Source: Candidatus Alloscybalousia sp. (GTDB taxonomy: Bacteria > Bacillota_I > Bacilli_A > RF39 > UBA660). Taken from it: a DNA stretch of 64,000 nucleotides. Made by a program: the position numbers and the translations under genes. Shown here one piece after another: positions 1 to 16,477 of this stretch; positions within the stretch are counted from its first letter, which is position 1; each line of letters opens with the position of its first letter. The stretch covers positions 1,671-65,670 of the forward strand of contig JAZOBJ010000013.1 in NCBI GenBank assembly GCA_045595895.1, given 5' to 3'. The notes below the pieces were generated by a model. The model did not search any database, was not told the DNA's origin, and saw nothing but the letters and a program-made list of their open reading frames with translations.

Positions 1-360
1 ATTGGTTTAGTTATTCCAGAACTTGATGGAAAATTAATTGGTGGTGCACAAAGAGTACCAGTGCCTGATGGAAGTTTAACTATTCTAGACTGTGTTGTAG
101 ATAGAGAAGTAACTAAAGAAGAAATTAATAATTTAATGAAATCTAAAGAAAGTGTTTCATTTGGTTATACTGAAGATGATATTGTATCTAGCGATATAAT
201 TGGTGATACACATGGTTCAGTATTTGATGCAACACAAACTAAAGTTATTTCACTTGGAAATGGTAAATCTTTGGTACAGGTAGTTGCGTGGTATGATAAT
301 GAGAATTCTTATACTTCACAGATGGTTAGAACTGCACAACATTTAATGAATTTAATGTAA
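1..360 (+). CDS. gap: glyceraldehyde-3-phosphate dehydrogenase, C-terminal part (gene begins upstream of window)
   Basis: Frame 1 reads [33 protein letters not shown]..., the GAPDH C-terminal catalytic domain. Stop at 358-360. pgk follows, as in gap-pgk-tpi operons. Confidence 0.85.
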
Positions 361-467
361 TAAAAGTATAGTAAAGTTTACTATACTTTTTATTTTGACT
401 AAAATTGTCTCATTAATTTACATCTAAAAATATACATGTTATAATTAATGTTATGAATGGTGATGCT

Positions 468-1649
468 ATGAAGAAGACAATAAAAGATTTTAATTTAGAC
501 AATAAGAGAGTAATTATTAGATGTGATTTTAATGTTCCAATGAAAAATGGGGTTATTACTGATGATAATAGGGTAGTTATGAGTTTAGATACAATTAATT
601 ATGCTATTAATAATGGTGCTAAGGTAATTCTTTTATCACACTTAGGTAGAATTAAATCAGAAGAAGATTTAGCTAATAATTCTTTATCTGCTGTTAGTAA
701 GAGATTAGAAGAATTGTTAGGAAGAAAAGTTACTTTTGTTTCTAATACCCGTGGTTCTGAAGTAGAAAGTTTTATATCTAATATGAATTCAGGTGATGTA
801 GTATTACTTGAAAATACTAGATATGAAGATCTTGATGGTAAAAAAGAAAGTTCTAATGATATGGAACTTGGTAAGTATTGGTCTTCTTTGGGTGATATAT
901 TTATAAATGATGCTTTTGGTACTATTCATAGAAGTCATGCATCTAATGTTGGGATTGCTTCTAATATTCCTAATGGAGTTGGATTTTTAGTAGAAAAAGA
1001 GTTGAATGAATTATCAAAACTTAATGATCCTGAAAGACCATATGTAGTTATTCTAGGTGGTGCTAAAGTTTCTGATAAATTAGGAGTTATTAATAATTTA
1101 GTTACTAAGGCTGATAAGGTTATTATTGGTGGTGCTATGGCTTTTACTTTTTTAAAAGCACAAGGTTATAATGTTGGTAAGTCTTTAGTTGAAGATGACT
1201 TAGTTAATACATGTTTAGAATTATTAAATGAATACAGTGAAAAGTTAGTTTTACCCGTTGATGTAGTTTTATCTAAAGGAATAGGTGAGGATTTTTCTAG
1301 TGAAACTAAATCTGTTTCAGATATTTTAAATGATGAAATAGGTCTTGATTTAGGTAAAAGTACTTTGGATAATATAGAAATGATTTTATCTAATGCTAAA
1401 ACTGTTGTATGGAATGGACCTCTTGGTTATTATGAATTAGAAAAATATCAAGTAGCTACTAAGAGAGTGTTAGAATTTTTAGTTAGTAATAATATTAATA
1501 CTATCCTAGGTGGTGGAGATATTGTAGCTGCTAGTAGTAGTCTTGGTTATAAGGATAAAGTAACACATGCTTCTACTGGTGGTGGTGCTACTTTAGAGTA
1601 TTTAGAAGGTAAACAGTTGCCAGGTTTAATGGTGATTGATGAGAAATAG
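468..1649 (+). CDS. pgk: phosphoglycerate kinase
   Basis: MKKTIKDFNL..RVIIRCDFNVP N-terminus and full-length Pgk motifs. RBS ggtga is 5 nt upstream of the ATG at 468; the track ORF begins at an upstream in-frame ATG at 453. Confidence 0.9.
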   Translation: MKKTIKDFNLDNKRVIIRCDFNVPMKNGVITDDNRVVMSLDTINYAINNGAKVILLSHLGRIKSEEDLANNSLSAVSKRLEELLGRKVTFVSNTRGSEVESFISNMNSGDVVLLENTRYEDLDGKKESSNDMELGKYWSSLGDIFINDAFGTIHRSHASNVGIASNIPNGVGFLVEKELNELSKLNDPERPYVVILGGAKVSDKLGVINNLVTKADKVIIGGAMAFTFLKAQGYNVGKSLVEDDLVNTCLELLNEYSEKLVLPVDVVLSKGIGEDFSSETKSVSDILNDEIGLDLGKSTLDNIEMILSNAKTVVWNGPLGYYELEKYQVATKRVLEFLVSNNINTILGGGDIVAASSSLGYKDKVTHASTGGGATLEYLEGKQLPGLMVIDEK

Positions 1650-1657
1650 GTGTTACT

Positions 1658-2677
1658 ATGAAGGGTTTAAAGAAGAATAGTATTATACTACTTGCTATTA
1701 CGCTTGTTGTATTAGTTTGTGTTTTAAAAGATGATTTTCCAAGTATAGTGGAAACATTGATGAGTGCTAATTTATTATGGATTCTAGCAGCTTTATTATG
1801 TTATTTTATTGCGATTGGATTTGAAGCTAAAGCTTATCAAGAAATTATACAGGGATATCAATATGATTATAGTTTTTTAAAGGCATATAAAATGTTAATA
1901 ATAACTAAGTTTTTTAATGGGATAACGCCATTTTCTTCAGGTGGGCAACCTATGCAGATTTATATGTTAAAAAAAGATGGTGTTAGACTTACTAAGGCTA
2001 CTAATATAATTATTCAAAACTTTATTATTTATCAGGCTGCTTTAGTATTATTTGGTATTGGTGCTATTATTATTAATCATTGTTTAGAAATATTTACTGA
2101 AGTTACTTTACTTAAACAGTTAGTTATTATTGGTTTTTTAATTAATACTTTGGTAATGGTAGGATTGATTGTTGTTAGTTTTAGTAGTAAATTTAATCAT
2201 TTTATCGTTAAAAAAGGTATTTCTATTTTAAGTTGGTTTAGACTTGTTAAAAATAAAGAGGAAAAGTTGGAGAGCTGGAAAGAGAAAGTTGATGATTTTC
2301 ATGAAGGTGCTGAATATTTAAAGAATAATAAAATGTTATGTTTAAGAACCTTTATTTATAATATTATTTATTTGGGTCTTACTTATTTAATGCCATTTTT
2401 TATTATAGTTGCATTAAATAATGGTATTATAACAGGCATTAATCCGCTTAAAGTTGTTTGTGCTTCTGCTTATGTATTGATTATTGGTGCTTTTGTACCT
2501 ATTCCTGGGGCTAGTGGAGGTATTGAATTTGGATATTTTAAATTCTTTGGTAATTTTATCACTGGTTCTTTACTAAAGGCTTCTTTATTAATTTGGAGAA
2601 CTATATCATATTATTTACCAATGATAGTTGGTGGTTTATTATTTAATATACACACAAAAAGAGGCGATGAAAAATGA
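1658..2677 (+). CDS. polytopic membrane protein, UPF0104 / lysyl-PG-synthase-TM-like (flippase-like) family, translationally coupled to the glycosyltransferase
   Basis: 339 aa with about 8 TM segments and a PFSSGGQPMQIYMLKK motif. The ATGA overlap with the next ORF suggests translational coupling to the downstream glycosyltransferase. RBS aggtg. Confidence 0.5.
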   Translation: MKGLKKNSIILLAITLVVLVCVLKDDFPSIVETLMSANLLWILAALLCYFIAIGFEAKAYQEIIQGYQYDYSFLKAYKMLIITKFFNGITPFSSGGQPMQIYMLKKDGVRLTKATNIIIQNFIIYQAALVLFGIGAIIINHCLEIFTEVTLLKQLVIIGFLINTLVMVGLIVVSFSSKFNHFIVKKGISILSWFRLVKNKEEKLESWKEKVDDFHEGAEYLKNNKMLCLRTFIYNIIYLGLTYLMPFFIIVALNNGIITGINPLKVVCASAYVLIIGAFVPIPGASGGIEFGYFKFFGNFITGSLLKASLLIWRTISYYLPMIVGGLLFNIHTKRGDEK

Positions 2678-3918
2678 GAATAGGTATATTTACTGAAGCT
2701 TATACACCGTATATTAGTGGGTTAGTTACTAGCGTAGTAATGCTTAAAAAGGGTTTGGAAAAATTAGGACATGAAGTGTATATAGTAACTGCTAACTTAG
2801 AAAGTTATGAATATAATTACGATGAAAAAGAAAGAATTTTAAGAATACCTGGTATTCCTACTGGTATTTATGATTCTAGACTTACATCTGTTTATCCTTT
2901 AAAAGCAGTTAATATGATTAGAAATTGGGATTTGGATATTATTCATTCTCAGACTGAGTTTGCGATTGGGACATTTGCTAGACTTATGGCTTATCAGTTG
3001 GATATTCCATTGGTTCATACTTATCATACTATGTATGAAGATTATGTACATTATATAACTAAGGGTTATTTTGATAAATCAAGTAAAAAGATTGTTGAAT
3101 ATTTAACATTATTCTATTGTGATAAAACAGCTACTGAATTAATTGTTCCTACTAAGAAGACTTATGATTTATTTAAAGAAAAATATCAAGTTGATAGAAA
3201 TATTCATATTATTCCTACTGGAATCGAACTTGAAAGATTTTATAAAGAGAATATAGATACTGATAAACTTGATAAACTTAGAAAAAAGTTAAAATTAAAA
3301 GATAAAGATTTTGTCGGAGTTTTTATAGGAAGACTTGGTCAAGAAAAGAATGTATTATTCTTGATTGATGTTATGAAGAAATTGGTTGTTGATTATCCTG
3401 ATATTAAGTTATTAATAGTTGGTGATGGTCCTGATTATGATAATTATAAAAAAGTAATTAAAGACTACGGGATTGAAAAAAATGTTATTATGACTGGTAA
3501 AGTGGCTTGGGAAGAAGTACCTTATTATTATCAATTGTCTGATATCTTTTTAACTGCTTCTCATACTGAAACACAAGGATTAACTGTAATTGAAGCTATG
3601 GCTAGTGGTGTAGTTCCAGTATGTATTGAAGATGAAAGTTTTTTAATAGCTGTTGTTGATGGTTTGAATGGTAGAATTTTTAAAGATAAGACGGAGTGTA
3701 AAAAGATTATTTTAGAATTATATAATGATCGTGATTTGGTTAATAGACTTTCTAAACAGGCTCGTATTAATTCTGATCGTTTTGGTTCTAAGTTCTTTGC
3801 TGAATCAGTTTTAAATGTATATAAATATGCCATTGATAATAAGAAAAATAATCTTGGATTAATTGGTAAATTTGTTGACAGAATGAAAGGAAATAAGGAT
3901 GAAGTGGATAATAAGTAA
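2674..3918 (+). CDS. GT4-family glycosyltransferase, alMGS-like 1,2-diacylglycerol 3-glucosyltransferase (glycolipid synthase)
   Basis: N-terminus MRIGIFTEAYTPYISGLVTSVVMLKKGLEKLGHEVYIVT closely resembles Acholeplasma monoglucosyldiacylglycerol synthase. C-terminal GT4 EX7E-like region. Confidence 0.65.
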   Translation: MRIGIFTEAYTPYISGLVTSVVMLKKGLEKLGHEVYIVTANLESYEYNYDEKERILRIPGIPTGIYDSRLTSVYPLKAVNMIRNWDLDIIHSQTEFAIGTFARLMAYQLDIPLVHTYHTMYEDYVHYITKGYFDKSSKKIVEYLTLFYCDKTATELIVPTKKTYDLFKEKYQVDRNIHIIPTGIELERFYKENIDTDKLDKLRKKLKLKDKDFVGVFIGRLGQEKNVLFLIDVMKKLVVDYPDIKLLIVGDGPDYDNYKKVIKDYGIEKNVIMTGKVAWEEVPYYYQLSDIFLTASHTETQGLTVIEAMASGVVPVCIEDESFLIAVVDGLNGRIFKDKTECKKIILELYNDRDLVNRLSKQARINSDRFGSKFFAESVLNVYKYAIDNKKNNLGLIGKFVDRMKGNKDEVDNK

Positions 3919-4561
3919 TCATAAGAATGCTTTAGATGATGACGTAGTAGTTGATTATGTTGATGCACTTAATAGGGTTGAACTAGAGGGAATTAATTTA
4001 GTTATATGTCCTAAGGATTCACATTTAAGTTATTTTACTGGAAATTATTATCTAGGGTGTCAAGATGTTAATTTATCTTTTGATCAAATGAAGAAAAGTA
4101 ATATTAGATTTAGTATAGTAGGACATAGTTATAAGAGAAGTAAGTATAATGAATCTAATAAAATGATTAATAAAAAGATAAAAGATTTATTAGCTAATGG
4201 TATTACTCCTATTTTGTGTATAGGGGAAGAAGTTAATAATAATTTAAAAGATACTTTGCTTGTAGAACTTGAAGAAGGTTTAAATGAGGTTTCTGGTGAT
4301 GTGATTATTGCTTATGAACCCGTTTGGGCTATTGGTAGTGGTATGATACCTAATATAGAGGTTTTAAATGATACTGTTGATTTTATAGATAAACAGGCAA
4401 CTAGATTACTAGGAAGAAAACCTATAATTATATATGGTGGTAGTGTTAATAGGGACACAATTAATTTGTTAGAATGTGTTCACGAATTGGATGGTTATTT
4501 AATTGGTAATGCCAGCGTTGAAATAGATAAATTAGTAGAATTAATAGAGGTGATAAAATGA
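3899..4561 (+). CDS. tpiA: triosephosphate isomerase (divergent)
   Basis: AYEPVWAIGSG and IIYGGSV motifs are present, the catalytic Lys is in SNHKN and His in VGHSYKR. The N-terminal and GHSERR motifs are atypical. RBS aaggaaataagg. Confidence 0.8.
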   Translation: MKWIISNHKNALDDDVVVDYVDALNRVELEGINLVICPKDSHLSYFTGNYYLGCQDVNLSFDQMKKSNIRFSIVGHSYKRSKYNESNKMINKKIKDLLANGITPILCIGEEVNNNLKDTLLVELEEGLNEVSGDVIIAYEPVWAIGSGMIPNIEVLNDTVDFIDKQATRLLGRKPIIIYGGSVNRDTINLLECVHELDGYLIGNASVEIDKLVELIEVIK

Positions 4562-4713
4562 TAGTTGATATTATGGATTCTTTAAATGAAATAGGTGATT
4601 GGTTACAAGTATTTATGGATAAGAATTATGATAACCCATTGTTTTGGCTTATTTTATTTTTAGTTTTGTTTATTATTGCTTGTATAGTAATAGGAAAGAT
4701 GGCAAATAAATAA
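4558..4713 (+). CDS. small hydrophobic peptide (51 aa), ATGA-overlapping the tpiA stop
   Basis: ORF MIVDIMDSLNEIGDWLQVFMDKNYDNPLFWLILFLVLFIIACIVIGKMANK with one TM helix, not in the supplied track because it is under 60 aa. There is no independent RBS, so it would rely on coupling. Confidence 0.25.
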   Translation: MIVDIMDSLNEIGDWLQVFMDKNYDNPLFWLILFLVLFIIACIVIGKMANK

Positions 4714-4719
4714 ATTTTA

Positions 4720-4790
4720 AAATTCGACAAATTTTTACATATCTTGTCAATATTCGCTGTATCTTATTGTTGAATATTATTGTATAATAA
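4720..4790 (+). promoter_or_regulatory. spo0A upstream region: 0A-box (TGTCGAA on minus orientation at 4723-4729), a second near-match TGTCAAT at 4745-4751, and an extended -10 TGTATAAT at 4781-4788
   Basis: The sequence ttcgaca is the reverse complement of the Spo0A-binding consensus TGTCGAA. TGnTATAAT lies about 35 nt before the spo0A RBS. This suggests Spo0A autoregulation, as in Bacillus. Confidence 0.3.
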
Positions 4791-4819
4791 TACTTGCGTG
4801 GAGTACGAAAGGAGAGAAT

Positions 4820-5593
4820 ATGGACAAGATCAGAGTACTTATGATCGATGATAACATCGAGTTAGTAAGCATGATTAAGGAGTACTTTAATAATCACGCT
4901 AGTATTGAGGTAGTATTAGAAGCAAATGATGGAGAAAAAGGAATATCAGTTGCTAAGAGTTGTCAAAACGAATATGATGTAATTCTTTTAGATTTGATTA
5001 TGCCTAAAAGAGATGGTTTATCAGTTTTGGAAGACTTAAGACGTGAAAATATCGATAAGAAAGTTATTATCTTAACATCTTATAATGCTCAAGATATGAT
5101 ACGTAAGGTTTCTGAACTAGGAGTAAATTATTTTATTCTAAAACCATTTGAATTATCAGATTTAGAAAGAAGAATTGAAGATTGTCGTGAAAGTAGGAGT
5201 TATAATAATACGTCAATAGATATTTATCATAATAATTTACAAATATCTATTACTAAAATCTTACATGAACTTGGAATACCATCTCATATTAAAGGGTATC
5301 AATATATTAGAGAAGGGATATCTATTTTGTATGAAAGACCTGAAGTTATTGGTGGTATAACTAAAGAGTTATATCCTGATATAGCTAATAAGTTTGATAC
5401 TACAGTTTCTCGAGTTGAAAGAGCTATTCGTCATGCTATTGAAGTTAGCTGGAATAGGGGAGACTGGGATTTAATGGAAGAAATATTTGGTCACAGTGTT
5501 GATATTGATAAGGCTAAGCCTACAAATTCAGAATTTATAGTGACTGTTGCTGATAAATTAAGATTGGAATTTCAAAGAGATTATATTAAATAG
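4820..5593 (+). CDS. spo0A: sporulation master regulator Spo0A (response regulator receiver plus Spo0A C-terminal DNA-binding domain)
   Basis: The C-terminal domain carries the Spo0A-specific motifs [27 protein letters not shown] and [19 protein letters not shown]. The receiver domain has the expected D10/D11 and D58 equivalents. RBS aaggagag. Confidence 0.9.
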
Positions 5594-5660
5594 ATATAAT
5601 CTTTTTCTTTACAAATTTATTTAAAAGTGGTAAAATAATCACTACTTATAGGGGGATAAT

Positions 5661-7031
5661 ATGGATAAGTCTGTATATTTAAAAAATAATCAAAGAGTTA
5701 TTGCTAATTTAATTAAGAAGTATGAGTTCTTAGATGAAATTGATGTAACTGTTAAAGTATTAGAAATTATAGATACGGAGTTAACAAATAAGGGTACTAA
5801 TGTAGCTTTTTCTAATATTAGGACGGTAGTTGAGAAATATTTTTCTGACTATATTAGTAAGAAGATTAGGAATAGTGATTTTAAACCTATCGAAAGTTGT
5901 ATTAATTATATTATTAGTATTGATCATGTTAATGTTCTTACTAAATTTTGTACTAAGATAAATTCTTTAGATTTAGATTTAGATGTTGAACATTATATTT
6001 CTATAATTAATAATAATGCTATTATAAGTAGTGAGTTAAAGAGTTTAATTTCTAATTTTAAAAGGGTCGAGGGTATGGGAATAATTGTTCCTAAAAAACT
6101 TTCTACGATGGCTATTATGGATTTTATAGAAGCATATTGTATGATAAATGGTATTGATATTGATAGTAATAGAGATGATTATGATGATGTTATAGAAACT
6201 GATGTTTATACTACAGATGATGTTAGACAATATTTGAAGGAAATTGGTCGTTTTCCTGTATTGGCTGTTCAAGAAGAATATGAATTAGCTATACGTGCTC
6301 AAGCAGGTGATAGTTATGCTATTAATAAATTAACTGAACATAATTTAAGGTTAGTTGTTTCATGTGTTAAGCGTTATGTTGGACGTGGCTTATCTTTTTT
6401 AGATTTAATTCAGGAAGGTAATTTAGGTCTCATAAGAGCTGTTAAAAAATTTGATCCAACTAAAGGGTATAAGTTTTCAACATATGCTACATGGTGGATT
6501 CGTCAAGCAACTACTCGTGCAATAGCAGAACAGGCTAGAACTGTTCGTTTACCGGTTCATTTAGTTGAATTTATTAATAGATTCACACGTGTTCAAAAAC
6601 AATTAGCTATCGATTTAAAACGTTATCCTACTGACCAAGAAATAGCTGATTATATGGGTGTTAGTATAAAAAAAATACAGGATGTTAAAAGTATATCTCA
6701 GGAGATGCTATATTTAGATACTCCTATTGGTGAAGATGGGGATACTTTATTATTAGAAATGGTTGTTGATCCGAATGCTGTTTATACTGAACAAACTGCT
6801 ATTATGTCTAACTTAAGTGATGAAATGTTGAAACTTTTAGAAGGATTATCTACACGTGATGCTAAGGTACTTTATTTAAGATTTGGATTTGATGGTAATC
6901 CTAGAACTTTAGAAGAAGTAGGGCAAATCTTTGGCGTAACACGTGAAAGAATACGTCAGATTGAAGCTAAAGCATTGAGAAAATTAAGAAAAAGATCTGA
7001 AAAAGCGCAATTAGGAGATTATTTATTATAA
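5661..7031 (+). CDS. sigma-70 family group 1/2 sigma factor (RpoD/SigA-like) with an atypical non-acidic N-terminal extension of about 190 aa
   Basis: Regions 1.2 to 4 are conserved: [57 protein letters not shown] and [31 protein letters not shown] aggggga. No dnaG upstream. Confidence 0.6.
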
Positions 7032-7137
7032 TAATAAAGCATATTCATATGAATATGCTTTTTTCTTTTATATAATTGACTTTCTGTATATTAAATATTA
7101 TAATCAAATTATAAAATATGTTAGGAGGATACGATTT

Positions 7138-8412
7138 ATGGAACGAAAAATATTTTCTGATTTACTTAAATGGAAGAAAGATGTTAATAGAAAACCTTTA
7201 TTACTTTATGGCAATAAACAAATAGGTAAAACTTATAGTGCAATTGAATTTGGAGAAAAGGAATATAAAACTATTGCCTATATTAATAGTGATAATAATA
7301 CTCAGTTTTTATCTATTATGCAAAAAGAAAGAACTATTGATAAAGTTATAGCTAAAATGTCTTTATTAGTTGGTGAATCTATTTTAAAAAATGATACATT
7401 AATTATTATTGATAATGTAGTGGATGAAGATATAGTTAAAGCTATAAAAAAATTTGGAAAAGAAGCTAATGATTATCATATTATTATGATTACTTCTTTG
7501 AAAGAGAAACTTTCTGTTTTTAAGGGTGAAGAATTACAATATAAATATATGTTTCCAATGGATTTTGAAGAATATTTGATGGCCGTTGGTAATTTAGAAC
7601 TAATAGATTTTATTAGAACTTCATATCGTAATAATAAGGCTATGCCTTTTCATAGTATAGCTATGGATTATTATGAAGAATATTTAATAACTGGTGGTCT
7701 TCCAGAATCTGTATTTGCTTCTATTAATAAAGAATCTGATTTAAAAATTAAAATTATTCAACAAAAACAATTAGATAGTTATAAAAAAGAATTTTTATAT
7801 ATGAATAATTTAATTGATATTACACGTTGTAATGATGTATTAAATATAATTCCATATCAATTATTAAAATCCAATAGAAAGTTCCAATATGGTCTTATGA
7901 GAACTGGTGGTAGAAGTAAAGATTATGAAACTGCTTTAGATTTCTTATCTAATAATGGTATTGCTTATAAGTGTTATAAAATTAGTGAAGTTAAACCTCC
8001 ACTTAGTAAGTGTAAAGATCAAGAGAGTTTTAAATTATATTTAAATGATACAGGTATTTTATTTATGATGATGCATTTATCTAGAATAAAGCTATTTACT
8101 GATGATAGTTTAAAATATATTTTATATGAAAATAATTTAGCTAATACCATTATCTCTTGTGGTTATAATTTATATTACTATCAATCAGAAGGTAAAGCTG
8201 AAGTCCCTTTTGTTGTACAAACTAGGGCTGGTAAAATTATTCCTATTGAGATAGTTAATAAAAATTTATCTAAAGCTAAGTCATTATCATTGTTTATGAG
8301 TAAATTTGAAATTAATGAAGCTATTCGTTTTACTGAAGATAACTTTAGCATGAAAAAAGGAATTAAATATGTTCCTATTTATGCAGCCTTCTGTTTAAAA
8401 GAAAATTTATAA
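7138..8412 (+). CDS. AAA-superfamily ATPase of the DUF4143/AAA_14 type (COG1373-like)
   Basis: N-terminal P-loop-like LLLYGNKQIGKTY, length 424 aa, with the C-terminal DUF4143-like region. RBS aggagga. Confidence 0.5.
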   Translation: MERKIFSDLLKWKKDVNRKPLLLYGNKQIGKTYSAIEFGEKEYKTIAYINSDNNTQFLSIMQKERTIDKVIAKMSLLVGESILKNDTLIIIDNVVDEDIVKAIKKFGKEANDYHIIMITSLKEKLSVFKGEELQYKYMFPMDFEEYLMAVGNLELIDFIRTSYRNNKAMPFHSIAMDYYEEYLITGGLPESVFASINKESDLKIKIIQQKQLDSYKKEFLYMNNLIDITRCNDVLNIIPYQLLKSNRKFQYGLMRTGGRSKDYETALDFLSNNGIAYKCYKISEVKPPLSKCKDQESFKLYLNDTGILFMMMHLSRIKLFTDDSLKYILYENNLANTIISCGYNLYYYQSEGKAEVPFVVQTRAGKIIPIEIVNKNLSKAKSLSLFMSKFEINEAIRFTEDNFSMKKGIKYVPIYAAFCLKENL

Positions 8413-8500
8413 AAATTTACTAAAAAGTTAATAAAATTATTAAAACGTTGAAATAATATATATCGTTTTAATATAAAATACAACAGAAAAGAGGTAAAAT

Positions 8501-10000
8501 ATGAGACCGATTTTATTAACAATTATAGATGGTTTTGGACTTCGTGATGAAGTAAAAGGTAATGCTGTTAAATTAGCTAATAAACCTAATTTTGATATGT
8601 TGTGGAATAGTTTTCCACATTCAACATTGAGTGCTAGTGGTAGAGATGTAGGTTTGCCTGAAGGTCAAATGGGTAACTCTGAAGTTGGACATTTAAATAT
8701 AGGTGGTGGAAGAATAGTTTATCAACCTTTTGAACTTATTAATAAAAAGATTGAAGATAAAACTTTTTTTGATAATAGTCAATTAAAAGGTGTTATGGAC
8801 CATGTTAAAAATAATAATTCTAAACTACATATATTTGGACTTCTAAGTGATGGTGGTATTCATTCCCATATTAATCATATTTTTGCGTTATTAGAGATGG
8901 CTAAAAAAGAGGGTGTTAGCGAAGTTTATGTACATGCTTTCTTAGATGGTAGAGATACTTTACCTGACATAGCTTTAACCTTCTTAAAACAGTTGCAATC
9001 TGAGATGGATGAATTAGGTATTGGTAAACTAGCTGATATTTCAGGTAGATATTATTCAATGGATCGTGAGAGAATGTGGGATTTAACTAAAAAATATTAT
9101 GATTTATTAGTTAATAAAGTTGGAAATGTTGTCTTTGATTTAGAAAAATATATTCAAGATAGTTATAATAATAATATATATGATGAATTTATAGTTCCTG
9201 GTATTGTTACTTCTAGTGGTAATTTGGAAGAAAATGATGGTTTAATTTTTGCTAATTTTAGACCAGATCGTGCTACTCAGACATTTACTGCTATAACTAA
9301 TCCTGAGTTTAATGAATTTGAAACTAAAAAGTTTAGTAATATAAAATTGGTGACTATGATGCCAGTTGAGAAAAGTATAATTTCTACTAATGCTTTTTGT
9401 ATTCCTGATGTTACTAACTGTTTAGGTGAATATTTGGATAAAAATAATAAAAAAGTTTTAAGAATAGCTGAAGCTAGTAAATATCCACATGTAACATATT
9501 TCTTTGATGGTGGTAAAGATATGGAATTACCTGGTACTGATAAGATTATTATTCCAAGAAAGAATGTTGCGACTTATGATATAGCTCCGGAAATGTCAGC
9601 TAAGGAAATAACAGATAAGCTTATTCCGATTATAGAAAACTATGATGTTATTATTTTAAACTTTGCAAACTGTGATATGGTTGGGCATACTGGTAATTTA
9701 GAAGCGGCTATTACTGCTGTTGAAACAGTTGATGAATGTATTGGTAGACTATATGAAAAAATCAAAGAAATTAATGGTTTGATGATCGTAACTGCAGATC
9801 ATGGAAATTGTGAACTTATGATTGATGAAGATGATAATATAATTACATCACATACTACTAATAGGGTGCCATTTATAATATGCAATAATAATTTGAAGTT
9901 AGTAGATGGTAAACTTGGTGATATTGCGCCAACTATTCTAAAATTAATGAATTTAGAAATTCCTAGTGATATGACTGGTGATATTTTAATGAAAGACTAA
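8501..10000 (+). CDS. gpmI: 2,3-bisphosphoglycerate-independent phosphoglycerate mutase
   Basis: MRPILLTIIDGFG..SEVGHLNIGGGRIVYQ and the C-terminal metal-binding phosphatase domain ADHGN. 499 aa. RBS aagaggtaa. Confidence 0.9.
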   Translation: MRPILLTIIDGFGLRDEVKGNAVKLANKPNFDMLWNSFPHSTLSASGRDVGLPEGQMGNSEVGHLNIGGGRIVYQPFELINKKIEDKTFFDNSQLKGVMDHVKNNNSKLHIFGLLSDGGIHSHINHIFALLEMAKKEGVSEVYVHAFLDGRDTLPDIALTFLKQLQSEMDELGIGKLADISGRYYSMDRERMWDLTKKYYDLLVNKVGNVVFDLEKYIQDSYNNNIYDEFIVPGIVTSSGNLEENDGLIFANFRPDRATQTFTAITNPEFNEFETKKFSNIKLVTMMPVEKSIISTNAFCIPDVTNCLGEYLDKNNKKVLRIAEASKYPHVTYFFDGGKDMELPGTDKIIIPRKNVATYDIAPEMSAKEITDKLIPIIENYDVIILNFANCDMVGHTGNLEAAITAVETVDECIGRLYEKIKEINGLMIVTADHGNCELMIDEDDNIITSHTTNRVPFIICNNNLKLVDGKLGDIAPTILKLMNLEIPSDMTGDILMKD

Positions 10001-10016
10001 AATTAGTCTTTTTTTT
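9994..10016 (+). terminator. rho-independent terminator after gpmI
   Basis: Hairpin agactaaaattagtct followed by T8. Confidence 0.45.
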
Positions 10017-10063
10017 GACATTGTTTTTTGATTTTTTATCTTATAATACTGTTGGTGATATTA

Positions 10064-10236
10064 TGAAAGTAAAAATATTTGATTTTGAGGATGAAAAAGA
10101 TTTAGAAAAAGCTATTAATGATTTTTTAGATGATAGCATGGATGTTGTTGATATTAAATATCAAGTGTCTATGGGAATATTTAGTGAGGAACAGATATAT
10201 TGTTTTTCAGCAATGATAGTTTATGCAAAAAAATAG
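10064..10236 (+). CDS. small sporulation-type protein, Cse60-like (57 aa)
   Basis: MKVKIFDFEDEKDLEKAINDFL..VVDIKYQVS..EEQIYCFSAMIVY resembles the sigma-E-controlled 60-aa Cse60 family from memory. RBS ggtga. Confidence 0.35.
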
Positions 10237-10291
10237 ACTTGTTCGATTGTTTATATTTTCTTAATATTTTATAATTATATTGGGTGGTAGT

Positions 10292-11479
10292 ATGAGGGAA
10301 AGACTTATTTTTCATATTGATGTAAATAATGCTTTTTTGTCATGGACTGCTGTTGATTTATTGAAAAAAGGTTATGAGATAGATATTCGTACTATTCCAT
10401 CGGTAATTGGTGGAGATGAGGAGTCTAGACGTGGAATAGTGACTGCTAAAAGTCCGGTAGCTAAGAAAATGGGGGTAGTAACAGCAGAGCCACTTTATAT
10501 GGCTAGAAAAAAGTGTCCAGGTTTAAAAGTGTTTAAGGGTGACTATGAACTTTATCATCGTGAATCTAATAAATTGTATAAATATTTCTGTAATTTTACA
10601 GATAAAATAGAGCGTTATTCTGTAGATGAATGTTTTTTAGATATGACTGGTACTGAGCTTTTATATCCTGATCCTATTGAACTTGCTTATAAGATGAGGG
10701 ACGAAATATATGAGAAGTTTGGTTATACTGTTAACATTGGGATAGCTAATAATAAATTGTGTGCTAAGATGGCAAGTGACTTTGAAAAACCTAATAAAGT
10801 ACATACTTTGTTTAGTTATGAAATAGAAAAGAAAATGTGGCCTCTTTCAGTTACAGAATTATTTATGGTAGGTAAGTCTTCTAGTAAAATTTTAATGGAA
10901 ATAGGTATTAAAACAATAGGTGATTTAGCTAAAACAGATATTATTTTTTTAAGAAGAAGATTCAAGAGTCAAGGTGATATGATGCATGAATATGCTAATG
11001 GTATTGATTTTAGTGAAGTGGAAGGAAATAGAGCTAAAAGTAAAAGTATTAGTGTTACTGAGACTTTGCCTGTTGATATTGATTCGATTTCGGGGTTTAA
11101 AAAAATATTACTTCCTCAAGCAGATAAAGTTGGTAAACAAGCTAGACGTGAGAAACTTTATGCTAAAACTATAGCTATTATCTTTAAAACAAGTGATTTT
11201 GTTTCTTATACTCATCAAATGAAATTAGTAAATCCTACAAATGTTACTTCTGAAATATATAATTATGCATTAGAAATTTTGGAAAAAGGTTGGAGAGGGG
11301 AGCCTCTTAGATTGATTGGAATAAGACTTGCTGATTTTACTAATGATAATAGTAAACAAATATCATTATTCGATACAGTTAAAGATACTGGGAATGATAA
11401 AATTCAGGAAGTACTTGATAACATTAGTGATAAATATGGTGATGGTGTTATTATGCCGGCATCTCTTAAGAAAAAATAA
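10292..11479 (+). CDS. dinB: Y-family DNA polymerase IV
   Basis: IFHIDVNNAFLSWTAVD with a catalytic D.. motif, SVDECFLDMTG and the little-finger domain. RBS gggtgg. Confidence 0.8.
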   Translation: MRERLIFHIDVNNAFLSWTAVDLLKKGYEIDIRTIPSVIGGDEESRRGIVTAKSPVAKKMGVVTAEPLYMARKKCPGLKVFKGDYELYHRESNKLYKYFCNFTDKIERYSVDECFLDMTGTELLYPDPIELAYKMRDEIYEKFGYTVNIGIANNKLCAKMASDFEKPNKVHTLFSYEIEKKMWPLSVTELFMVGKSSSKILMEIGIKTIGDLAKTDIIFLRRRFKSQGDMMHEYANGIDFSEVEGNRAKSKSISVTETLPVDIDSISGFKKILLPQADKVGKQARREKLYAKTIAIIFKTSDFVSYTHQMKLVNPTNVTSEIYNYALEILEKGWRGEPLRLIGIRLADFTNDNSKQISLFDTVKDTGNDKIQEVLDNISDKYGDGVIMPASLKKK

Positions 11480-11490
11480 TGGGTGATATA

Positions 11491-12414
11491 ATGGAATATA
11501 ATGATAGATTTATTAATGAGTTAATAGATAACGAAATTAAGTTTTGTGATTCTATTTGTGATAAATATAAATATCCTGATAATATTGGCCATTTACTTTA
11601 TATAATTATTCCGGCTTTTATTTTAAAGTATGGTATTAATAATAAGAGTATAATTGAAAAATGTTTTTATGATACACCGATAATAATTGATGATATACAG
11701 GAGCAGATACACCAAGCTTATTATTTTGGTGTTCCAAGATATCAGGGGGATAGTATAGTTGTTGATAAGGGGATAGTGTTAAAAAAATATAAAAATATTT
11801 CTCTTATACAACTACTTGATAATTTGATCCATGAGTTTAATCATGCTATTAATTCCATTCAAAATGAAATAGTTATTAATGATTTTGTTTTAGTCAGAAC
11901 AGGTATTGTTTATAATTGTTTTGATATTAGAACTTTAAAGTTTATTGAAAAGGGTTTTGAGAGTATTTTAGAAGAAGTAATTAATACTAAACAAACTGAA
12001 GAAGTAATTGATATTGTTAAAAGTTTTTCAAAATATAATCTTAATAATACAGTTGTTTCTTATACTTTATATTCTATAAATCATATGACAGATATTAATT
12101 ATCGTTCAAAGAGTTATTTATTAGAATCGTTGGTATGTCGTAGGCTTTTGGAAAATAAAACATTTATTTCTACTTTTGAAACTTTAAGATTTGAGGGAAA
12201 AATTGATGATATAAATGTTTTTTTTGATGATATTGTTGGTAAAAAAGGTTCACTTTCTGAGTTATCTCAGTTGTTGAATGAGTCATTAAAATTACAGAAA
12301 AGTTTAAGCAATAAGAAATGGTTTAGGAAAAGAATAATGAATAAAATAAGAAGTATTAATATTGAGGCTTTTAAAATAGTTGAGTGTTTTGATAATAATA
12401 CTGTATATAAATAA
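11491..12414 (+). CDS. hypothetical protein with an HExxH motif (putative zinc metallopeptidase-like), coupled to dinB
   Basis: LIHEFNHAINS contains HEFNH. Its start overlaps or abuts the dinB stop (taATGggtgatataATG). Confidence 0.4.
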   Translation: MEYNDRFINELIDNEIKFCDSICDKYKYPDNIGHLLYIIIPAFILKYGINNKSIIEKCFYDTPIIIDDIQEQIHQAYYFGVPRYQGDSIVVDKGIVLKKYKNISLIQLLDNLIHEFNHAINSIQNEIVINDFVLVRTGIVYNCFDIRTLKFIEKGFESILEEVINTKQTEEVIDIVKSFSKYNLNNTVVSYTLYSINHMTDINYRSKSYLLESLVCRRLLENKTFISTFETLRFEGKIDDINVFFDDIVGKKGSLSELSQLLNESLKLQKSLSNKKWFRKRIMNKIRSINIEAFKIVECFDNNTVYK

Positions 12415-12436
12415 AAAGACTATTTTTTTAATAGTC
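12405..12436. terminator. bidirectional terminator between convergent genes
   Basis: Palindrome aagactatttttttaatagtctt with T-runs on both sides. Confidence 0.5.
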
Positions 12437-12941
12437 TTTTTTCTTTTTTATAAAGTTTTTTAATCTCTGACAATAACATATATGGTATTTGGTATATTGG
12501 GATGTTTTGATTTGTAATTATTCTTTTAATTGTATTATCTTGATGTTCGATAATTATACTTTTATCCATTTCTTCTTTTTGTTCCCATGTTATTTCAGGT
12601 TGTTTATTTATTTTTCCTGTTATAAAAATGATACAATGGATATATTGAGAGAAATACGATATTCTTTCTTTTTCTGTTGGAATATAAGAATTTATTAGTT
12701 CACAAATGTTATTTAAACTTGTTAGTGATTTCATATCAAAATTATTTTGGTTCCATTTTAATAATTTAAGAATAGAATAGCTAAATAAACTATGTTCCAA
12801 TAAATTTATGTTTTCTAGTTTATCATTATGATAAAAATTTAATTCTATTAAATTATCACAACATTCTTTCATTACTGTTATTGATTCGCTTTCATAATTT
12901 ATTCTTTTTGTATACTTGATTTCCACATTGTTATTCTTCAT
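12420..12941 (-). CDS. hypothetical protein (173 aa)
   Basis: Clean ORF convergent with the dinB operon. No recognisable motifs. Confidence 0.4.
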   Translation of the reverse strand: MKNNNVEIKYTKRINYESESITVMKECCDNLIELNFYHNDKLENINLLEHSLFSYSILKLLKWNQNNFDMKSLTSLNNICELINSYIPTEKERISYFSQYIHCIIFITGKINKQPEITWEQKEEMDKSIIIEHQDNTIKRIITNQNIPIYQIPYMLLSEIKKLYKKEKRLLKK

Positions 12942-13055: not shown

Positions 13056-14690
13056 ATGAAAAAGAATTCCTTTATGCAAGGTGCGTTTATAGCTACTCTT
13101 GGTATTGTTTTAAGTAAGATTTTGGGAATTATTTATGTTATACCATTTTATGCCATTATTGGGGAACAAGGTGGTGCTTTATATGGTTATGCATATTCTA
13201 TTTACTCAATCTTTTTAGGCATATCACAGGCTGGTATTCCACTTGCAATCAGTAAAATAGTTAGTGAATATAATGTTTTAGGATATTATGATGCTAAAAG
13301 AAGAACTTTCCAACTTGGGAAAAAGGTTCTTTCAATGCTTGGTGTTGTTTGTTTCCTTATAATGTTTATTTTCGCTAGGGGTATAGCTACTGTTATTATT
13401 GGTAATGTTACTGGTGGTAATACAATTGAAGATGTTACTTTTGTAGTTAGAGTTATATCTTTTGCAGTGCTTGTTGTACCATTTCTTAGTATTTATAGGG
13501 GTTATTTACAGGGACATAAATTTATCACACCAACTTCTATTAGTCAGGTTTTAGAACAAATTGTTCGTGTATTGGTCATAGTGTTAGGAAGCTTTTTAAC
13601 TCTAAAAGTATTTAATTTATCTTTAACTACTGCAGTTGGTGTAGCAGTATTTTCTGCTACTATAGGTGCTTTAGTATCTTACTTTTATTTAGTATTTAAA
13701 ATTAGAAAAGATAAGAAAGCATTAGAAAAAGAAACAATGAAAGTTGAAGAACCAAAGATTGCTGATAGAGAGATAATTCAAAAGATAATTATATATGCAT
13801 TTCCATTTATTATGATAGATGTATTTAAATCATTAATTAATTCAGTTGATGTATTTATGTTGGTTAGAGTGTTAGTAAATGGTATTGGTTATACAGCGAT
13901 AGAAGCTGAGTCTATTATGAGTGTTGTTTCAACATGGGGACATAAATTAAATATGATTATTGCAGCTATATCTTCAGGATTAATGGTTAGTTTAATACCA
14001 CACTTAACTGCTAGTTTTGTAAAAAAAGATATGGATGATGTTAAGAAGAAAGTTAATCAAACATTACAGGGGTTATTATTCTTTACTGTTCCTATGACTG
14101 TGGGATTATCAATACTGGCTAAACCCGTTTGGACTATATTCTATGGTACAAGTAATTTTGGACCTAATGTTTATCAATTCTACGTATTTGTAGCACTGGC
14201 TACTACAGTGTTTACTGCTAGTGTTACTATTCTTCAGTTATTAAAAGAGTATAAACAAGTATTTATTTGTCTAATTACTGGTTTATTAACTAATGCATGT
14301 TTGAATATCCCATTGTTATATGCATTTGATTATATGGGATTTCCGGCTTATTATGGTTCAATATTATCAACAATTCTAGGATACTTTGTATGTAGTTATT
14401 TAGCATTACGTTATGTTAATAAAAAATATGAAGTTAGCTATGAAGATACTATTAGAAAAGTGTTTAATATTGTTTCAATTACATTAGTAATGGTAATTGT
14501 GTTACTTGGATTAAAATATATCTTACCATTTAATTCTACCAGTAGATTATTTAGTATTTTATATGTAGTTATATTTAGTATTATTGGTGGTGTTATATAT
14601 TTTGGCATTACATTTAAGACTAAGTTAATATATGATGTATTTGGAAAAGGGAATGTTTGTAAAATATTAGATAAATTTAGAAAAAGGTGA
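13056..14690 (+). CDS. MOP-superfamily flippase (MurJ / SpoVB-like lipid II or polysaccharide flippase)
   Basis: 544 aa with about 14 TM helices and an N-terminus MKKNSFMQGAFIATLGIVLSKILGIIYVIPF typical of MurJ/SpoVB. RBS ggaggaa. Lies immediately upstream of the FemAB genes. Confidence 0.6.
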   Translation: MKKNSFMQGAFIATLGIVLSKILGIIYVIPFYAIIGEQGGALYGYAYSIYSIFLGISQAGIPLAISKIVSEYNVLGYYDAKRRTFQLGKKVLSMLGVVCFLIMFIFARGIATVIIGNVTGGNTIEDVTFVVRVISFAVLVVPFLSIYRGYLQGHKFITPTSISQVLEQIVRVLVIVLGSFLTLKVFNLSLTTAVGVAVFSATIGALVSYFYLVFKIRKDKKALEKETMKVEEPKIADREIIQKIIIYAFPFIMIDVFKSLINSVDVFMLVRVLVNGIGYTAIEAESIMSVVSTWGHKLNMIIAAISSGLMVSLIPHLTASFVKKDMDDVKKKVNQTLQGLLFFTVPMTVGLSILAKPVWTIFYGTSNFGPNVYQFYVFVALATTVFTASVTILQLLKEYKQVFICLITGLLTNACLNIPLLYAFDYMGFPAYYGSILSTILGYFVCSYLALRYVNKKYEVSYEDTIRKVFNIVSITLVMVIVLLGLKYILPFNSTSRLFSILYVVIFSIIGGVIYFGITFKTKLIYDVFGKGNVCKILDKFRKR

Positions 14691-14694
14691 TATT

Positions 14695-15951
14695 ATGGAA
14701 TTTATGATATTAACAGAAGATGAATATAGACAATTTATAAATGGTAATAGTATGACATCTTTTATGCAAACTGTGGAGCTTTCTAATTTAAAAAAAGAAT
14801 TAGGAAGTAAAGTTCATTTTGTAGGAGTTAAAAAAGGTAAAAAAGTAGTAGCAGGTTCTATGATATTAGAAGATTCTACTATTCTTAATAAAAAGATGTT
14901 TTATGCTCCACGTGGTTTGATTGTTGATTATCATAATAAAGAACTTCTTGCATTTTTTACTTGTGAGTTAAAGAAATATATAAAGATGAATAATGGTTTT
15001 ATATTAACGATTGATCCTAATGTTATTTATAGGGTTAGAACTAGTGATGGTGAAATTGATCCCAATAATAATGCTGATGATGAGTCAGTTGATAATTTGA
15101 TTAGTTTAGGGTATAAGCATCATGGTTTTAATCTATATCTAGATACTATGCAAGCTAGATGGTGTTATTTATTTAGTTTAGATGAAGATTATGAAACTAA
15201 AAAATCTAAATTTTCAAAGAGTACTAGAAAAAATATTGACTTTTGCAAGAAAAAAGGTTTAATGGTAAGAGAGGGTACTATTGATGATTTAGCTGTTATG
15301 GCGGAGATTTTTGAGATAACTTCTAAAAGAAAAGATTTCTTTTCTAGGAGTTTAGAATATTATCAAAAAATGTATTATCATTTGAAAAATTTAATGACTA
15401 TATATATAGCTTATTTAGATCCAGAAATTTATTATAATCATACATTAAGTTTATTAGAAGTAGCTAAAAAAAATTATGAAGTTGTTTTGGATAAGATGGA
15501 AAAAGATATGGTTGGTAGTAAACTTATTAATCAAAAAGAAACAGCTTTGAAACAAATTTCTAAATATGAAAAAGAATTGGAAAAAGCTAGCAAGTTTAAG
15601 AAAGATTACCCTAATGGTAAGGATATTGGTTGCTTGTTATCTCTTAGATCTGGGGATGAGTATTTAACTTTATCAAGTGGTACTTTAGCTGAATATAGAG
15701 AATTTACTCCTAAGTATTTAATGTATGAGCATCATATTAAAGAGGCTTATAATGAAGGATTTAAGTACTGTAATTTTTATGGAATAACAGGGGACTTTAA
15801 TCCTAATGGTAAGTATTATGGAATATATGAATTTAAAAAAGGATTTAATGGTAATGTCATTGAATATATAGGACAATTTGAATTAGCAGTTACTGGCTTT
15901 TATTCGGTTTATAAAATATTAAAAAGAATAAAGAAATTTATTGGGAGGTAG
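14695..15951 (+). CDS. FemAB-family peptidoglycan interpeptide-bridge aminoacyltransferase, paralog 1
   Basis: FemX/FemA-like GNAT-fold N and C domains with a coiled-coil insertion (KETALKQISKYEKELEKA) and YGITGDFNPNGKYYGIYEFKKGFNG at the C-terminus. Confidence 0.75.
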   Translation: MEFMILTEDEYRQFINGNSMTSFMQTVELSNLKKELGSKVHFVGVKKGKKVVAGSMILEDSTILNKKMFYAPRGLIVDYHNKELLAFFTCELKKYIKMNNGFILTIDPNVIYRVRTSDGEIDPNNNADDESVDNLISLGYKHHGFNLYLDTMQARWCYLFSLDEDYETKKSKFSKSTRKNIDFCKKKGLMVREGTIDDLAVMAEIFEITSKRKDFFSRSLEYYQKMYYHLKNLMTIYIAYLDPEIYYNHTLSLLEVAKKNYEVVLDKMEKDMVGSKLINQKETALKQISKYEKELEKASKFKKDYPNGKDIGCLLSLRSGDEYLTLSSGTLAEYREFTPKYLMYEHHIKEAYNEGFKYCNFYGITGDFNPNGKYYGIYEFKKGFNGNVIEYIGQFELAVTGFYSVYKILKRIKKFIGR

Positions 15952-15953
15952 TT

Positions 15954-16457: not shown

Positions 16458-16477
16458 TAAAAAAAATAAGATTCATT

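Follow-up and report, generated by a model that had tools for sequence, protein, structure and literature searches.

The window analysed here is a 64,000-nt stretch of DNA from Candidatus Alloscybalousia sp. (NCBI GenBank assembly GCA_045595895.1, contig JAZOBJ010000013.1, positions 1,671 to 65,670 of the forward strand). Its first 10.2 kb carry spo0A, the gene for the master sporulation response regulator, within a cluster of glycolytic genes. The central glycolytic operon of Bacillus subtilis is cggR-gapA-pgk-tpiA-pgm-eno, with a known internal promoter upstream of pgk, and the usual spo0A locus in Bacillus and Clostridium is one in which spoIVB and spo0A are adjacent. A first-pass annotation of the window had described the glycolytic cluster as interrupted twice, had called its gene order unusual, and had proposed that the physical linkage of spo0A and a sigma factor gene to glycolytic genes may reflect co-regulation of carbon flux and sporulation entry. 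We found that this layout is the vertically inherited norm of a large uncultured clade of gut Bacilli and a lineage-specific variant of known things.

Gene content of the locus and its conservation

Gene identities were assigned from open reading frame (ORF) calls and from Pfam and NCBIfam profile matches of the window proteins. All genes of the first 10.2 kb lie on the plus strand, in the order gap, pgk, a gene for a flippase-like membrane protein, a GT4 glycosyltransferase gene, tpiA, an ORF of 51 amino acids (aa), spo0A, a gene for a 456-aa sigma factor, an AAA_14/DUF4143 ATPase gene, gpmI and cse60 (Table 1). Every gene named in the first-pass annotation was found where it had been placed, and both interruptions are real: the lipid pair (the flippase-like and GT4 genes) lies between pgk and tpiA, and further genes lie between tpiA and gpmI. 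The flippase-like gene starts 8 nt past the pgk stop codon and overlaps the GT4 gene by ATGA (2674–2677), the GT4 stop overlaps tpiA by 20 nt, and tpiA and the 51-aa ORF share another ATGA; the coupling of the lipid pair is thus as previously noted, and so is the perfect 0A box ahead of spo0A. Compared with a canonical gap-pgk-tpiA-gpmI-eno operon, the cluster has two insertions, predicted internal terminators and promoters, no regulator domain called upstream of gap, and no eno, which neither follows gpmI (cse60 and dinB come next) nor was found elsewhere in the window. No SpoIVB-type domain was present among the window ORFs scanned (all those of at least 190 aa except one nested on the opposite strand), and positions 1–10400 gave no Rfam match, either at gathering thresholds or at E ≤ 1.

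For comparison, we used 80 species-level GTDB representatives, one genome per species, which were the best 80 of 126 matches to peptide patterns of close-relative Spo0A; window proteins were located in them by tblastn, and the denominators of the synteny counts are loci with enough flanking sequence. The NCBI titles of these relatives are uncultured Bacilli or 'Tenericutes', Ca. (Allo)scybalousia, Mycoplasma sp. CAG:877 and Clostridium sp. CAG:1193, and they are probably members of the RFN20/RF39/ML615J-28 group; Ca. Scybalousia, since renamed Alloscybalousia, is placed by NCBI in Bacilli incertae sedis. Rabbit, human (Hadza), chicken and mouse guts are among the sources of their metagenome-assembled genomes (MAGs), which were built with different assemblers. 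Spo0A identity to the window protein ranges from 67 to 91% over the 80 genomes.

Upstream of spo0A, tpiA was located within 2 kb on the same strand in 61 of 73 loci; the GT4 gene was upstream in 59 of 71, the flippase-like gene in 56 of 68 and pgk in 53 of 57. Downstream, the DUF4143 ATPase gene was present in 52 of 68 loci, with 43–86% identity, and gpmI in 44 of 60. A 127-kb ENA metagenome contig (L001; relatives are cited by such locus numbers) carries the same genes and encodes an identical Spo0A. The earlier description of the order as unusual therefore holds with respect to model Bacilli and Clostridia and fails within the organism's own clade, where the synteny comparison shows it to be the standard arrangement. 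The first-pass annotation had also allowed that the order might be universal in the clade and already described; it is the rule across the 80 genomes, but we found no published description. No account of spo0A synteny was found in the literature on sporulation in RFN20/RF39/ML615J-28, on Turicibacter or on the sporulation gene set of the Firmicutes, and searches for spo0A together with tpiA and gpmI returned nothing relevant.

The remark that spo0A lacks a spoIVB neighbour also proved correct: besides the 61 of 73 genomes with tpiA upstream, no spoIVB was seen in the rearranged loci scanned, and it was never the upstream neighbour of spo0A in any locus examined. SpoIVB has been described as near-universal among spore-formers (bioRxiv 10.1101/2022.02.25.481979).

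Departures from the common order are of several kinds. Four relatives lack the lipid pair and have pgk-tpiA-spo0A (L057, L065, L072, L080), and two lack the ATPase gene and have gpmI directly after spo0A (L068, L076); in L060 and L078, no ATPase match was found and gpmI lies about 1 and 2.8 kb past spo0A, respectively. There is no room for tpiA between the GT4 gene and spo0A in L063, L074 and L077. The upstream neighbours of spo0A are cdaA-cdaR in L045 and murA plus a GDSL lipase gene in L055 and L073, with fba preceding these in L055. In L013, a reverse transcriptase gene (RVT_1, 3317–4345 of that locus) lies immediately upstream of spo0A and replaces the glycolytic genes.

These comparisons also bear on the possibility, raised in the first-pass annotation, of a chimeric contig that joins glycolytic genes to the sporulation and regulatory genes of another organism. 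The sequence does stem from a short-read metagenome assembly. However, the order is the rule among the 80 species-level genomes, which are independent of one another and differ in host and assembler, and the pgk/flippase-like, GT4/tpiA, tpiA/spo0A, spo0A/ATPase and ATPase/gpmI junctions recur in dozens of independent MAGs and contigs; because of this recurrence, a chimera is excluded. In addition, genes overlap across junctions, and G+C content and GC skew are uniform over the region. An assembly artefact is therefore so improbable as to be negligible, and for annotators the presence of spo0A in a glycolytic cluster is no sign of misassembly. Contig L001 represents a different strain from the window: spo0A and pgk are identical, 14 codons differ in tpiA and 28 in the sigma gene, and over the part compared (window 1–12500) the differing codons are clustered in patches that resemble recombination tracts, with register lost after about 12.5 kb.

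The flippase-like protein belongs to its families by a clear distance (PF03706, 138 bits against a cut-off of 33.4; TIGR00374, 92.8 against 43.2). The best NCBIfam model for the GT4 protein is alpha-monoglucosyl-diacylglycerol (DAG) synthase (NF049988), at 295 bits against a cut-off of 400, which places it below the equivalog level; it is a GT4 enzyme of the general alMGS kind. The pair would likely synthesize a membrane glycolipid on the inner leaflet and then translocate it outward. Triosephosphate isomerase (TIM), here a compact protein, changes unusually fast compared with its neighbours, with a median identity of 36% vs 61% for phosphoglycerate kinase and 76% for Spo0A. It passes the PF00121 cut-off of 20 bits, misses the NCBIfam equivalog cut-off (124 vs 298 bits) and aligns to solved TIM structures. 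Since its catalytic residues N7, K9, H76 and E140 do not vary among the aligned sequences that have a residue in these columns (67 sequences, i.e., 66 relatives and L001), the enzyme is probably active. The residue after its GHS motif is Tyr in this species and Glu or Asp in 64/67 relatives.

As for the small genes, a 55-aa gene is called at the position of the 51-aa ORF in L083, L084, L086 and L088, and tblastn matches were obtained in 10 close relatives. The cse60-like gene after gpmI was not detected at this position in any of the 45 relatives with enough flank and is a species-specific addition; it has weak matches to two PHROG families of unassigned function. The gap gene, which is cut by the window edge, encodes 335 aa in full length on L001.

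Table 1. Features of the window from gap to dinB, with the evidence for each.
Feature	Position	Strand	Evidence
gap 3' end (type I GAPDH)	1–360	+	Gp_dh_C and TIGR01534 C-terminal match; gene cut by window edge
Intrinsic terminator-like hairpin 3' of gap	362–390	+	13-bp A+T-rich stem, then U-run
Promoter-like site 5' of pgk	417–445	+	TTTACA-17-TATAAT with TG; 11/12 positions match; motif match only
pgk, phosphoglycerate kinase	453–1649	+	PF00162, 456 bits, full length
Flippase-like membrane protein (LPG_synthase_TM / TIGR00374, MprF flippase-domain family)	1658–2677	+	PF03706, 138 bits
GT4 glycosyltransferase	2674–3918	+	Glyco_transf_4 and Glycos_transf_1 domains; NF049988, 295 bits
tpiA, triosephosphate isomerase, 220 aa	3899–4561	+	PF00121, 135 bits
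51-aa ORF with C-terminal transmembrane stretch	4558–4713	+	Translation; no family match
Perfect 0A box	4723–4729	-	TGTCGAA on - strand (TTCGACA on +); 97 nt before spo0A ATG
spo0A -10 element TATAAT (4783–4788) and conserved leader CTTGCGTGGAGTACGAAAGGAGA with ribosome-binding site	4783–4819	+	Upstream alignment
spo0A, master sporulation response regulator	4820–5593	+	TIGR02875, 281 bits; Response_reg and Spo0A_C
Promoter-like site for sigma gene	5608–5636	+	TTTACA-17-TAAAAT with TG
RpoD/SigA paralogue, 456 aa	5661–7031	+	Pfam sigma-70 regions 1.2, 2, 3, 4
Intrinsic terminator 3' of sigma gene	7036–7061	+	11-bp stem, then T-run; z = -2.87
Promoter-like site 5' of ATPase gene	7076–7104	+	TTGACT-17-TATAAT, then conserved leader TAGGAGGATACGATTTATG
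AAA_14 and DUF4143 ATPase, COG1373 type	7138–8412	+	Pfam
gpmI, cofactor-independent phosphoglycerate mutase	8501–10000	+	TIGR01307, 632 bits (cut-off 331)
Terminator-like hairpin and T-run over gpmI stop codon	9993–10010	+	Own hairpin scan; weak A+T-rich stem
cse60-like small sporulation gene	10015–10236	+	PF10957, 72.8 bits
dinB	10280–11479		Domain match

Predicted transcription units around spo0A

The Spo0A protein of the window is at the equivalog level (TIGR02875, 281 bits against a cut-off of 200) and matches both PF00072 and PF08769 over their full lengths. The context of its phospho-acceptor Asp and its recognition helix are almost identical to those of the model proteins, such as B. 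subtilis Spo0A. The 7-mer of the 0A box alone is not significant in the window, where three matches were found vs 2.3 expected; the box gains its significance because a similar offset is kept among relatives. In 60 of 79 relatives, TTCGACA occurs no more than 200 nt ahead of the spo0A ATG, mostly at -84 to -105, most of those without the full motif retain TCGACA, and the probability of such a position arising by chance is, by a rough estimate, less than 0.01 per locus. A consensus 0A box upstream of its own gene implies autoregulation of spo0A. When the 79 upstream regions were aligned by eye, the TATAAT element also proved widely conserved, as did the leader CTTGCGTGGAGTACGAAAGGAGA (4795–4817), which is near-invariant in closer relatives and recognizable in most of the other loci. 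The leader has no Rfam match and its fold is no better than that of shuffled sequence; it may be a protein-binding or translation-control site. A sigma-H-type promoter was also considered for spo0A: AGGA lies near the right place in some relatives and is absent from the window, and this candidate was dropped.

A relaxed terminator scan covered up to 110 nt after spo0A and the interval from -260 to -80 relative to its ATG. Terminator-like hairpins were present just downstream of spo0A in 49 of 76 relatives and just upstream in 38 of 79. We quote these counts together with the rate in a control set (15 of 240 random windows, 6%), because the relaxed scan yields false positives in A+T-rich coding DNA, such as the one at 4630–4653 inside the 51-aa ORF. 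In cargo-free relatives, the spo0A stop codon is followed by a hairpin with a T-run, by TTGAC-17-TATAAT and then by the leader of the ATPase gene; both the TTGAC...TATAAT site and this leader, TAGGAGGATACGATTTATG in the window, are conserved in relatives. The gap between the ATPase gene and gpmI is 15–40 nt in many relatives and 88 nt in the window, with no terminator between, and the two genes are apparently co-transcribed. Behind gap, the region 355–452 folds at -18.2 kcal/mol (z = -3.07) into a hairpin that our own scan also picks up, and the promoter-like site before pgk is among the three best, and joint best, in a scan of 10.4 kb. Since the genes from pgk to the 51-aa ORF are 8 nt apart or overlap, the pgk, flippase-like, GT4 and tpiA genes and the 51-aa ORF almost certainly form one transcription unit. 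The predicted units of the region are therefore gap alone, pgk to the 51-aa ORF, spo0A alone, the sigma gene alone, and the ATPase gene with gpmI; we infer these boundaries from motifs and spacing. This regulatory anatomy favours independent transcription of spo0A over its coupling to glycolysis.

We assign a probability of about 0.72 to the reading that the layout is ordinary for its clade and arose by stepwise accretion, with spo0A as a separate unit and the sigma paralogue in a variable slot between spo0A and the ATPase gene. Several points weigh against it. In the window, neither the junction of the 51-aa ORF with spo0A nor that of spo0A with the sigma gene contains a convincing terminator, and the first good one past the 51-aa ORF is that at 7036–7061, so that transcription from the pgk operon could run on into both spo0A and the sigma gene. 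The promoters and terminators are motif-level predictions in DNA of 27% G+C, in which 88 promoter-like sites were found vs 77 expected. Adjacency that is kept down to 67% Spo0A identity could reflect selection for linkage. Finally, the status of the sigma gene as an accessory paralogue presupposes a canonical rpoD, which would lie elsewhere in the genome, outside the single contig at hand.

The co-regulation proposal gives some of these points a functional meaning: read-through from a strongly expressed pgk-tpiA operon would tie the dosage of Spo0A, and in this species also of the sigma paralogue, to glycolytic gene expression and hence influence the sporulation decision. The same-strand adjacency of tpiA and spo0A in 61 of 73 genomes despite Spo0A divergence down to 67% speaks for such coupling, but in small genomes with few rearrangements, gene order is expected to persist for long in any case. 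Even the rearranged L055 has a glycolytic gene, fba, three genes upstream of spo0A; against this, spo0A has non-glycolytic contexts in L013 and L045, tpiA is missing at that position in L063, L074 and L077, and 5–7 kb of unrelated genes are inserted between tpiA and spo0A in L036, L039 and L040. The two junctions that lack a convincing terminator in the window, 51-aa ORF/spo0A and spo0A/sigma gene, would permit read-through here, whereas about half of the relatives have a terminator-like hairpin in the stretch from tpiA to the 0A box, and some two thirds have one past spo0A (38/79 and 49/76 vs 6% in the control). In addition, spo0A is immediately preceded by a promoter region of its own, which is conserved and includes a 0A box. 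Shared transcription linking carbon flux to sporulation entry thus appears unlikely, and the layout lends little support to such a circuit. The sigma gene fares no better as a fixed partner of the glycolytic genes: it is absent from 66 of 68 species representatives and is therefore optional cargo.

The variable slot, its sigma paralogue and the ATPase gene

In 19 of the 52 loci with both flanks, spo0A and the ATPase gene are more than 450 bp apart, and the cargo between them is unrelated from locus to locus. It includes cadherin-like, LPXTG and leucine-rich repeat surface proteins, Mur ligase with Ddl, and TelA/VWA/AAA proteins; L002 has a second DUF4143 ATPase and L043 a Bro-N protein. Taken together with the insertions between tpiA and spo0A mentioned above, the intergenic spaces to either side of spo0A are hotspots of insertion with conserved genes at their borders. 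The cargo around spo0A amounts to 1–7.6 kb and includes AAA_5 proteins (L002, L011, L025, L043 and L062 between spo0A and the ATPase gene; L036, L039 and L040 between tpiA and spo0A).

In the closest relatives of the window, the recurrent occupant of the slot is the sigma paralogue. Its description as atypical was borne out, in that it lacks region 1.1 and scores below the cut-offs of the RpoD equivalogs (NF006666, 369 bits vs 572; TIGR02393, 309 vs 354). Regions 1.2, 2, 3 and 4 all score above the Pfam cut-offs, as in group 1–2 sigma-70 factors, but PF03979 (region 1.1), which the 363-aa RpoD proteins of the clade carry, has no match and is replaced by a private helical N-terminal domain (5661–6185, residues 1–175). 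The alignment revealed that regions 2.4 and 4.2 are nearly identical to those of RpoD, so that sigma-A-like promoter specificity is likely; the protein would direct RNA polymerase to sigma-A-type promoters. In B. subtilis, sigma-A contacts Spo0A through K356 and H359; the paralogues deviate from RpoD at the aligned His position, an observation from which we draw no claim.

In a collection of 5.8 billion proteins, the sole full-length relative is a cluster containing the 98%-identical copy of L001; the remaining top matches are canonical 363-aa RpoD proteins that cover only the C-terminal 60% of the paralogue, at about 60% identity. An exhaustive HMMER search with residues 1–175 returned 10 cluster representatives among 1.84 billion (E ≤ 0.001), 8 of which are 430–471 aa long; the nine that were aligned all have RpoD-like regions, one of them being truncated within these. 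The N-terminal domain is modelled by AlphaFold2 (AF2) with a predicted local distance difference test (pLDDT) score of 90, and it has no convincing relatives in sequence or fold and no PHROG or viral-structure match.

All members of this family that could be placed lie between spo0A and the ATPase gene: those of the window, L006 (two copies), L086 (two copies), L082–L085, L087 and L088. A TTTACA...T(A/G)TAAT site precedes the paralogues in all four spacers read (L006, L083, L086, L088). Only 2 of 68 species representatives have a sigma gene in this slot, and the copy in L025 is without the shared N-terminal domain. The full-length identity of the paralogues to the window protein is 31–41%, and that of their C-terminal part 37–51%, whereas Spo0A and the ATPase encoded on the same contigs are about 90% and 85–93% identical, respectively. 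Identity to canonical RpoD is 55–61% for most of them and 38–43% for L006_a, L086_a and L088; each paralogue is nearer to canonical RpoD than most are to one another, and the paralogue branches of the tree are long. The tandem 'a' and 'b' copies of L006 and L086 group by type, and the duplication therefore predates these species. The sigma genes of the window and L001 differ by 18 synonymous and 10 non-synonymous codons, with none in spo0A or pgk, which is consistent with purifying selection on a functional gene.

A primary sigma factor is a universal, single, conserved orthologue, and a protein with a counterpart downstream of spo0A in 2 of 68 representatives and with 31–41% identity among paralogues does not fit that description. 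We consider it most likely a sigma-A-like alternative sigma factor. Three sigA paralogues have been noted, without characterization, in Turicibacter sanguinis (PMC13492147). A specific link of the paralogue to Spo0A or to genetic conflict is no more than possible. In one such scheme, the spo0A-adjacent sigma-A paralogues would constitute a new class of primary-like alternative sigma factors tied to Spo0A, with sigma-A promoter specificity retained and a private regulatory domain in place of region 1.1, which either reprogramme RNA polymerase at the onset of sporulation or act as decoys for factors aimed at sigma-A; they would be expressed from their own promoter and, here, perhaps also from the autoregulated spo0A promoter through transcription that continues past spo0A. 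We regard this as improbable. If it were true, the evolutionary rate, the tandem duplication and the presence/absence variation among sister species would mark conflict over the sporulation decision, and a paralogue acting with or against Spo0A or sigma-A would represent a new regulatory layer of sporulation entry in uncultured gut bacteria. This rare spo0A-linked family is the one lead of wider interest at the locus.

A second scheme would make the region beside spo0A a defence or conflict islet, in which the ATPase is an anti-phage nuclease-ATPase and the sigma paralogue a decoy or back-up against phage anti-sigma factors, loosely like MzaA, the sigma-70 protein of the MZA anti-phage system. 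DUF4143 is part of the PD-(D/E)XK superfamily (PMC3424549), and the ATPase matches the PADLOC family PDC-S01 over its full length (E = 1.2e-109, residues 1–422); PDC-S01, however, is a computational candidate family. The best PADLOC match of the sigma paralogue is indeed MzaA, but this match covers only the generic sigma2–sigma4 core (NF041931, 296 bits vs a cut-off of 800), and the partner genes mzaB–E are not adjacent, the neighbours being spo0A and the DUF4143 ATPase gene, nor are any of the other MZA genes present. The paralogues evolve very fast (31–41% full-length identity where Spo0A is at about 90%), are tandemly duplicated in L006 and L086 and vary in presence among close relatives, all of which would suit a conflict gene; the ATPase, by contrast, is vertically inherited and slow (85–93% where the sigma paralogue is at 31–41%) and appears to share a unit with gpmI. 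Likewise, the slot is hypervariable and holds a second DUF4143 ATPase (L002) and a Bro-N protein (L043), yet its cargo consists mostly of surface and cell-wall proteins, and the N-terminal domain of the sigma paralogue is without a PHROG or viral-structure match. A defence role for the islet is accordingly doubtful, although the slow vertical evolution of the ATPase speaks neither for nor against anti-phage activity as such.

Origin of the layout, the wider window and related systems

In the favoured reading of stepwise accretion, the starting point would have been an ancestral cluster of gap and pgk-tpiA ... gpmI that gained unrelated genes in steps; accretion is suggested because variants without the lipid pair and without the ATPase gene occur, and the order of the steps is conjectural. 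The glycolipid module (flippase-like and GT4 glycosyl-DAG synthase-like genes) would have been inserted, translationally coupled, into the pgk-tpiA operon. Between tpiA and gpmI, spo0A would have settled as a self-contained, autoregulated unit with its own promoter, 0A box and leader and often its own terminators, and the ATPase gene, with its own predicted sigma-A-type promoter, would now stand first in the unit with gpmI. The space that separates spo0A from the ATPase gene would have become the hypervariable slot, occupied in this species by a fast-evolving paralogue of the housekeeping sigma factor, and long vertical inheritance in a clade of low-G+C gut Bacilli would have followed. The layout would then be an example of small genomes packing unrelated housekeeping genes into old operons. 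For annotation, spo0A should be sought inside the glycolytic cluster in this gut lineage, and not beside spoIVB.

The DNA has a G+C content of 27% and strong GC skew, and the wider window is consistent with such an organism. It holds a class B RNase P RNA and Bacillus-like housekeeping synteny (tyrS, rpsD, ezrA-iscS-thiI, ackA, der...spoIVA-hbs, ponA-recU, recA-rny, ftsY/ffh). Besides spo0A and cse60, the sporulation gene seen in the window is spoIVA (40513–42000), whose product has all three domains; the order der ... spoIVA ... hbs (38146–42917) is as in Bacillus subtilis and supports a sporulation-capable member of the Bacilli. At 13056–19035, a MurJ/Wzx-type flippase gene is followed by three FemAB paralogues (14695–15951 on the plus strand, 16478–17752 and 17749–19035 on the minus strand), which suggest that the peptidoglycan has an interpeptide bridge, in a lineage that often goes under the label 'Tenericutes'. 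Given spoIVA, the FemAB paralogues, the MurJ/Wzx-type flippase and a class A penicillin-binding protein, the organism is probably walled and may form spores. On the basis of gene content, the RFN20/RF39/ML615J-28 orders have been predicted to comprise both families that sporulate and families that do not (PMC10868615).

A 311-aa ORF after dinB (11479–12414) is conserved in relatives at 39–49% identity. No Pfam match was obtained for it, for the 173-aa minus-strand ORF at 12420–12941, for the ORFs at 20093–21636 (219 and 289 aa) or for the 599-aa ORF at 24714–26513, and the first two also had no PADLOC or PHROG match. Usually, nothing but a small ylxM-like gene lies between ftsY and ffh; here, ftsY (57822–58871) and ffh (61003–62310) enclose a gene for a 584-aa HerA/DUF87-type ATPase (59185–60939).

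Compared with the glycolytic operon of B. subtilis, the cluster likewise has gap, pgk, tpiA and gpmI in this order and on a single strand, as well as a break after gap (predicted terminator at 362–390) and a promoter-like site before pgk. It differs in that the sequence ahead of gap on L001 has no called gene for a CggR-type regulator, that five to six unrelated genes lie between pgk and gpmI, and that gpmI is apparently driven from the promoter of the ATPase gene. The spo0A locus resembles that of Bacillus and Clostridium in its equivalog-level Spo0A and in the consensus 0A box upstream of its own gene, but the upstream neighbour is tpiA (61/73), and no sigma-H-type promoter was recognized with confidence.

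The lipid pair recalls MprF, Acholeplasma alMGS and the gpgSDF module, with a lipid glycosyltransferase gene coupled to an LPG_synthase_TM flippase-like gene. The gpgSDF genes of Pseudomonas aeruginosa are a lipid glycosyltransferase and flippase module in which the flippase role of GpgF is itself only predicted (PMC12713373). In contrast to gpgSDF, the pair is without a deacetylase gene and is embedded in a glycolytic operon; its GT4 protein is nearer to monoglucosyl-DAG synthase than to GpgS (295 vs 82 bits, under the equivalog cut-off in both cases), and its flippase-like protein reaches 47 bits against the 320-bit cut-off of GpgF.

The ATPase shares with the COG1373-type/PDC-S01 ATPases an AAA+ domain, a PD-(D/E)XK-type DUF4143 and a full-length PDC-S01 match, but unlike typical defence genes it is slow-evolving, vertically inherited, fixed in position and not patchy. 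The sigma paralogue, finally, resembles housekeeping SigA/RpoD in regions 1.2–4, in its 2.4 and 4.2 segments and in the sigma-A-type promoter predicted for its own gene, and it is set apart from them by a private helical domain of 170 residues and by being optional, very fast evolving, sometimes tandem and located beside spo0A.

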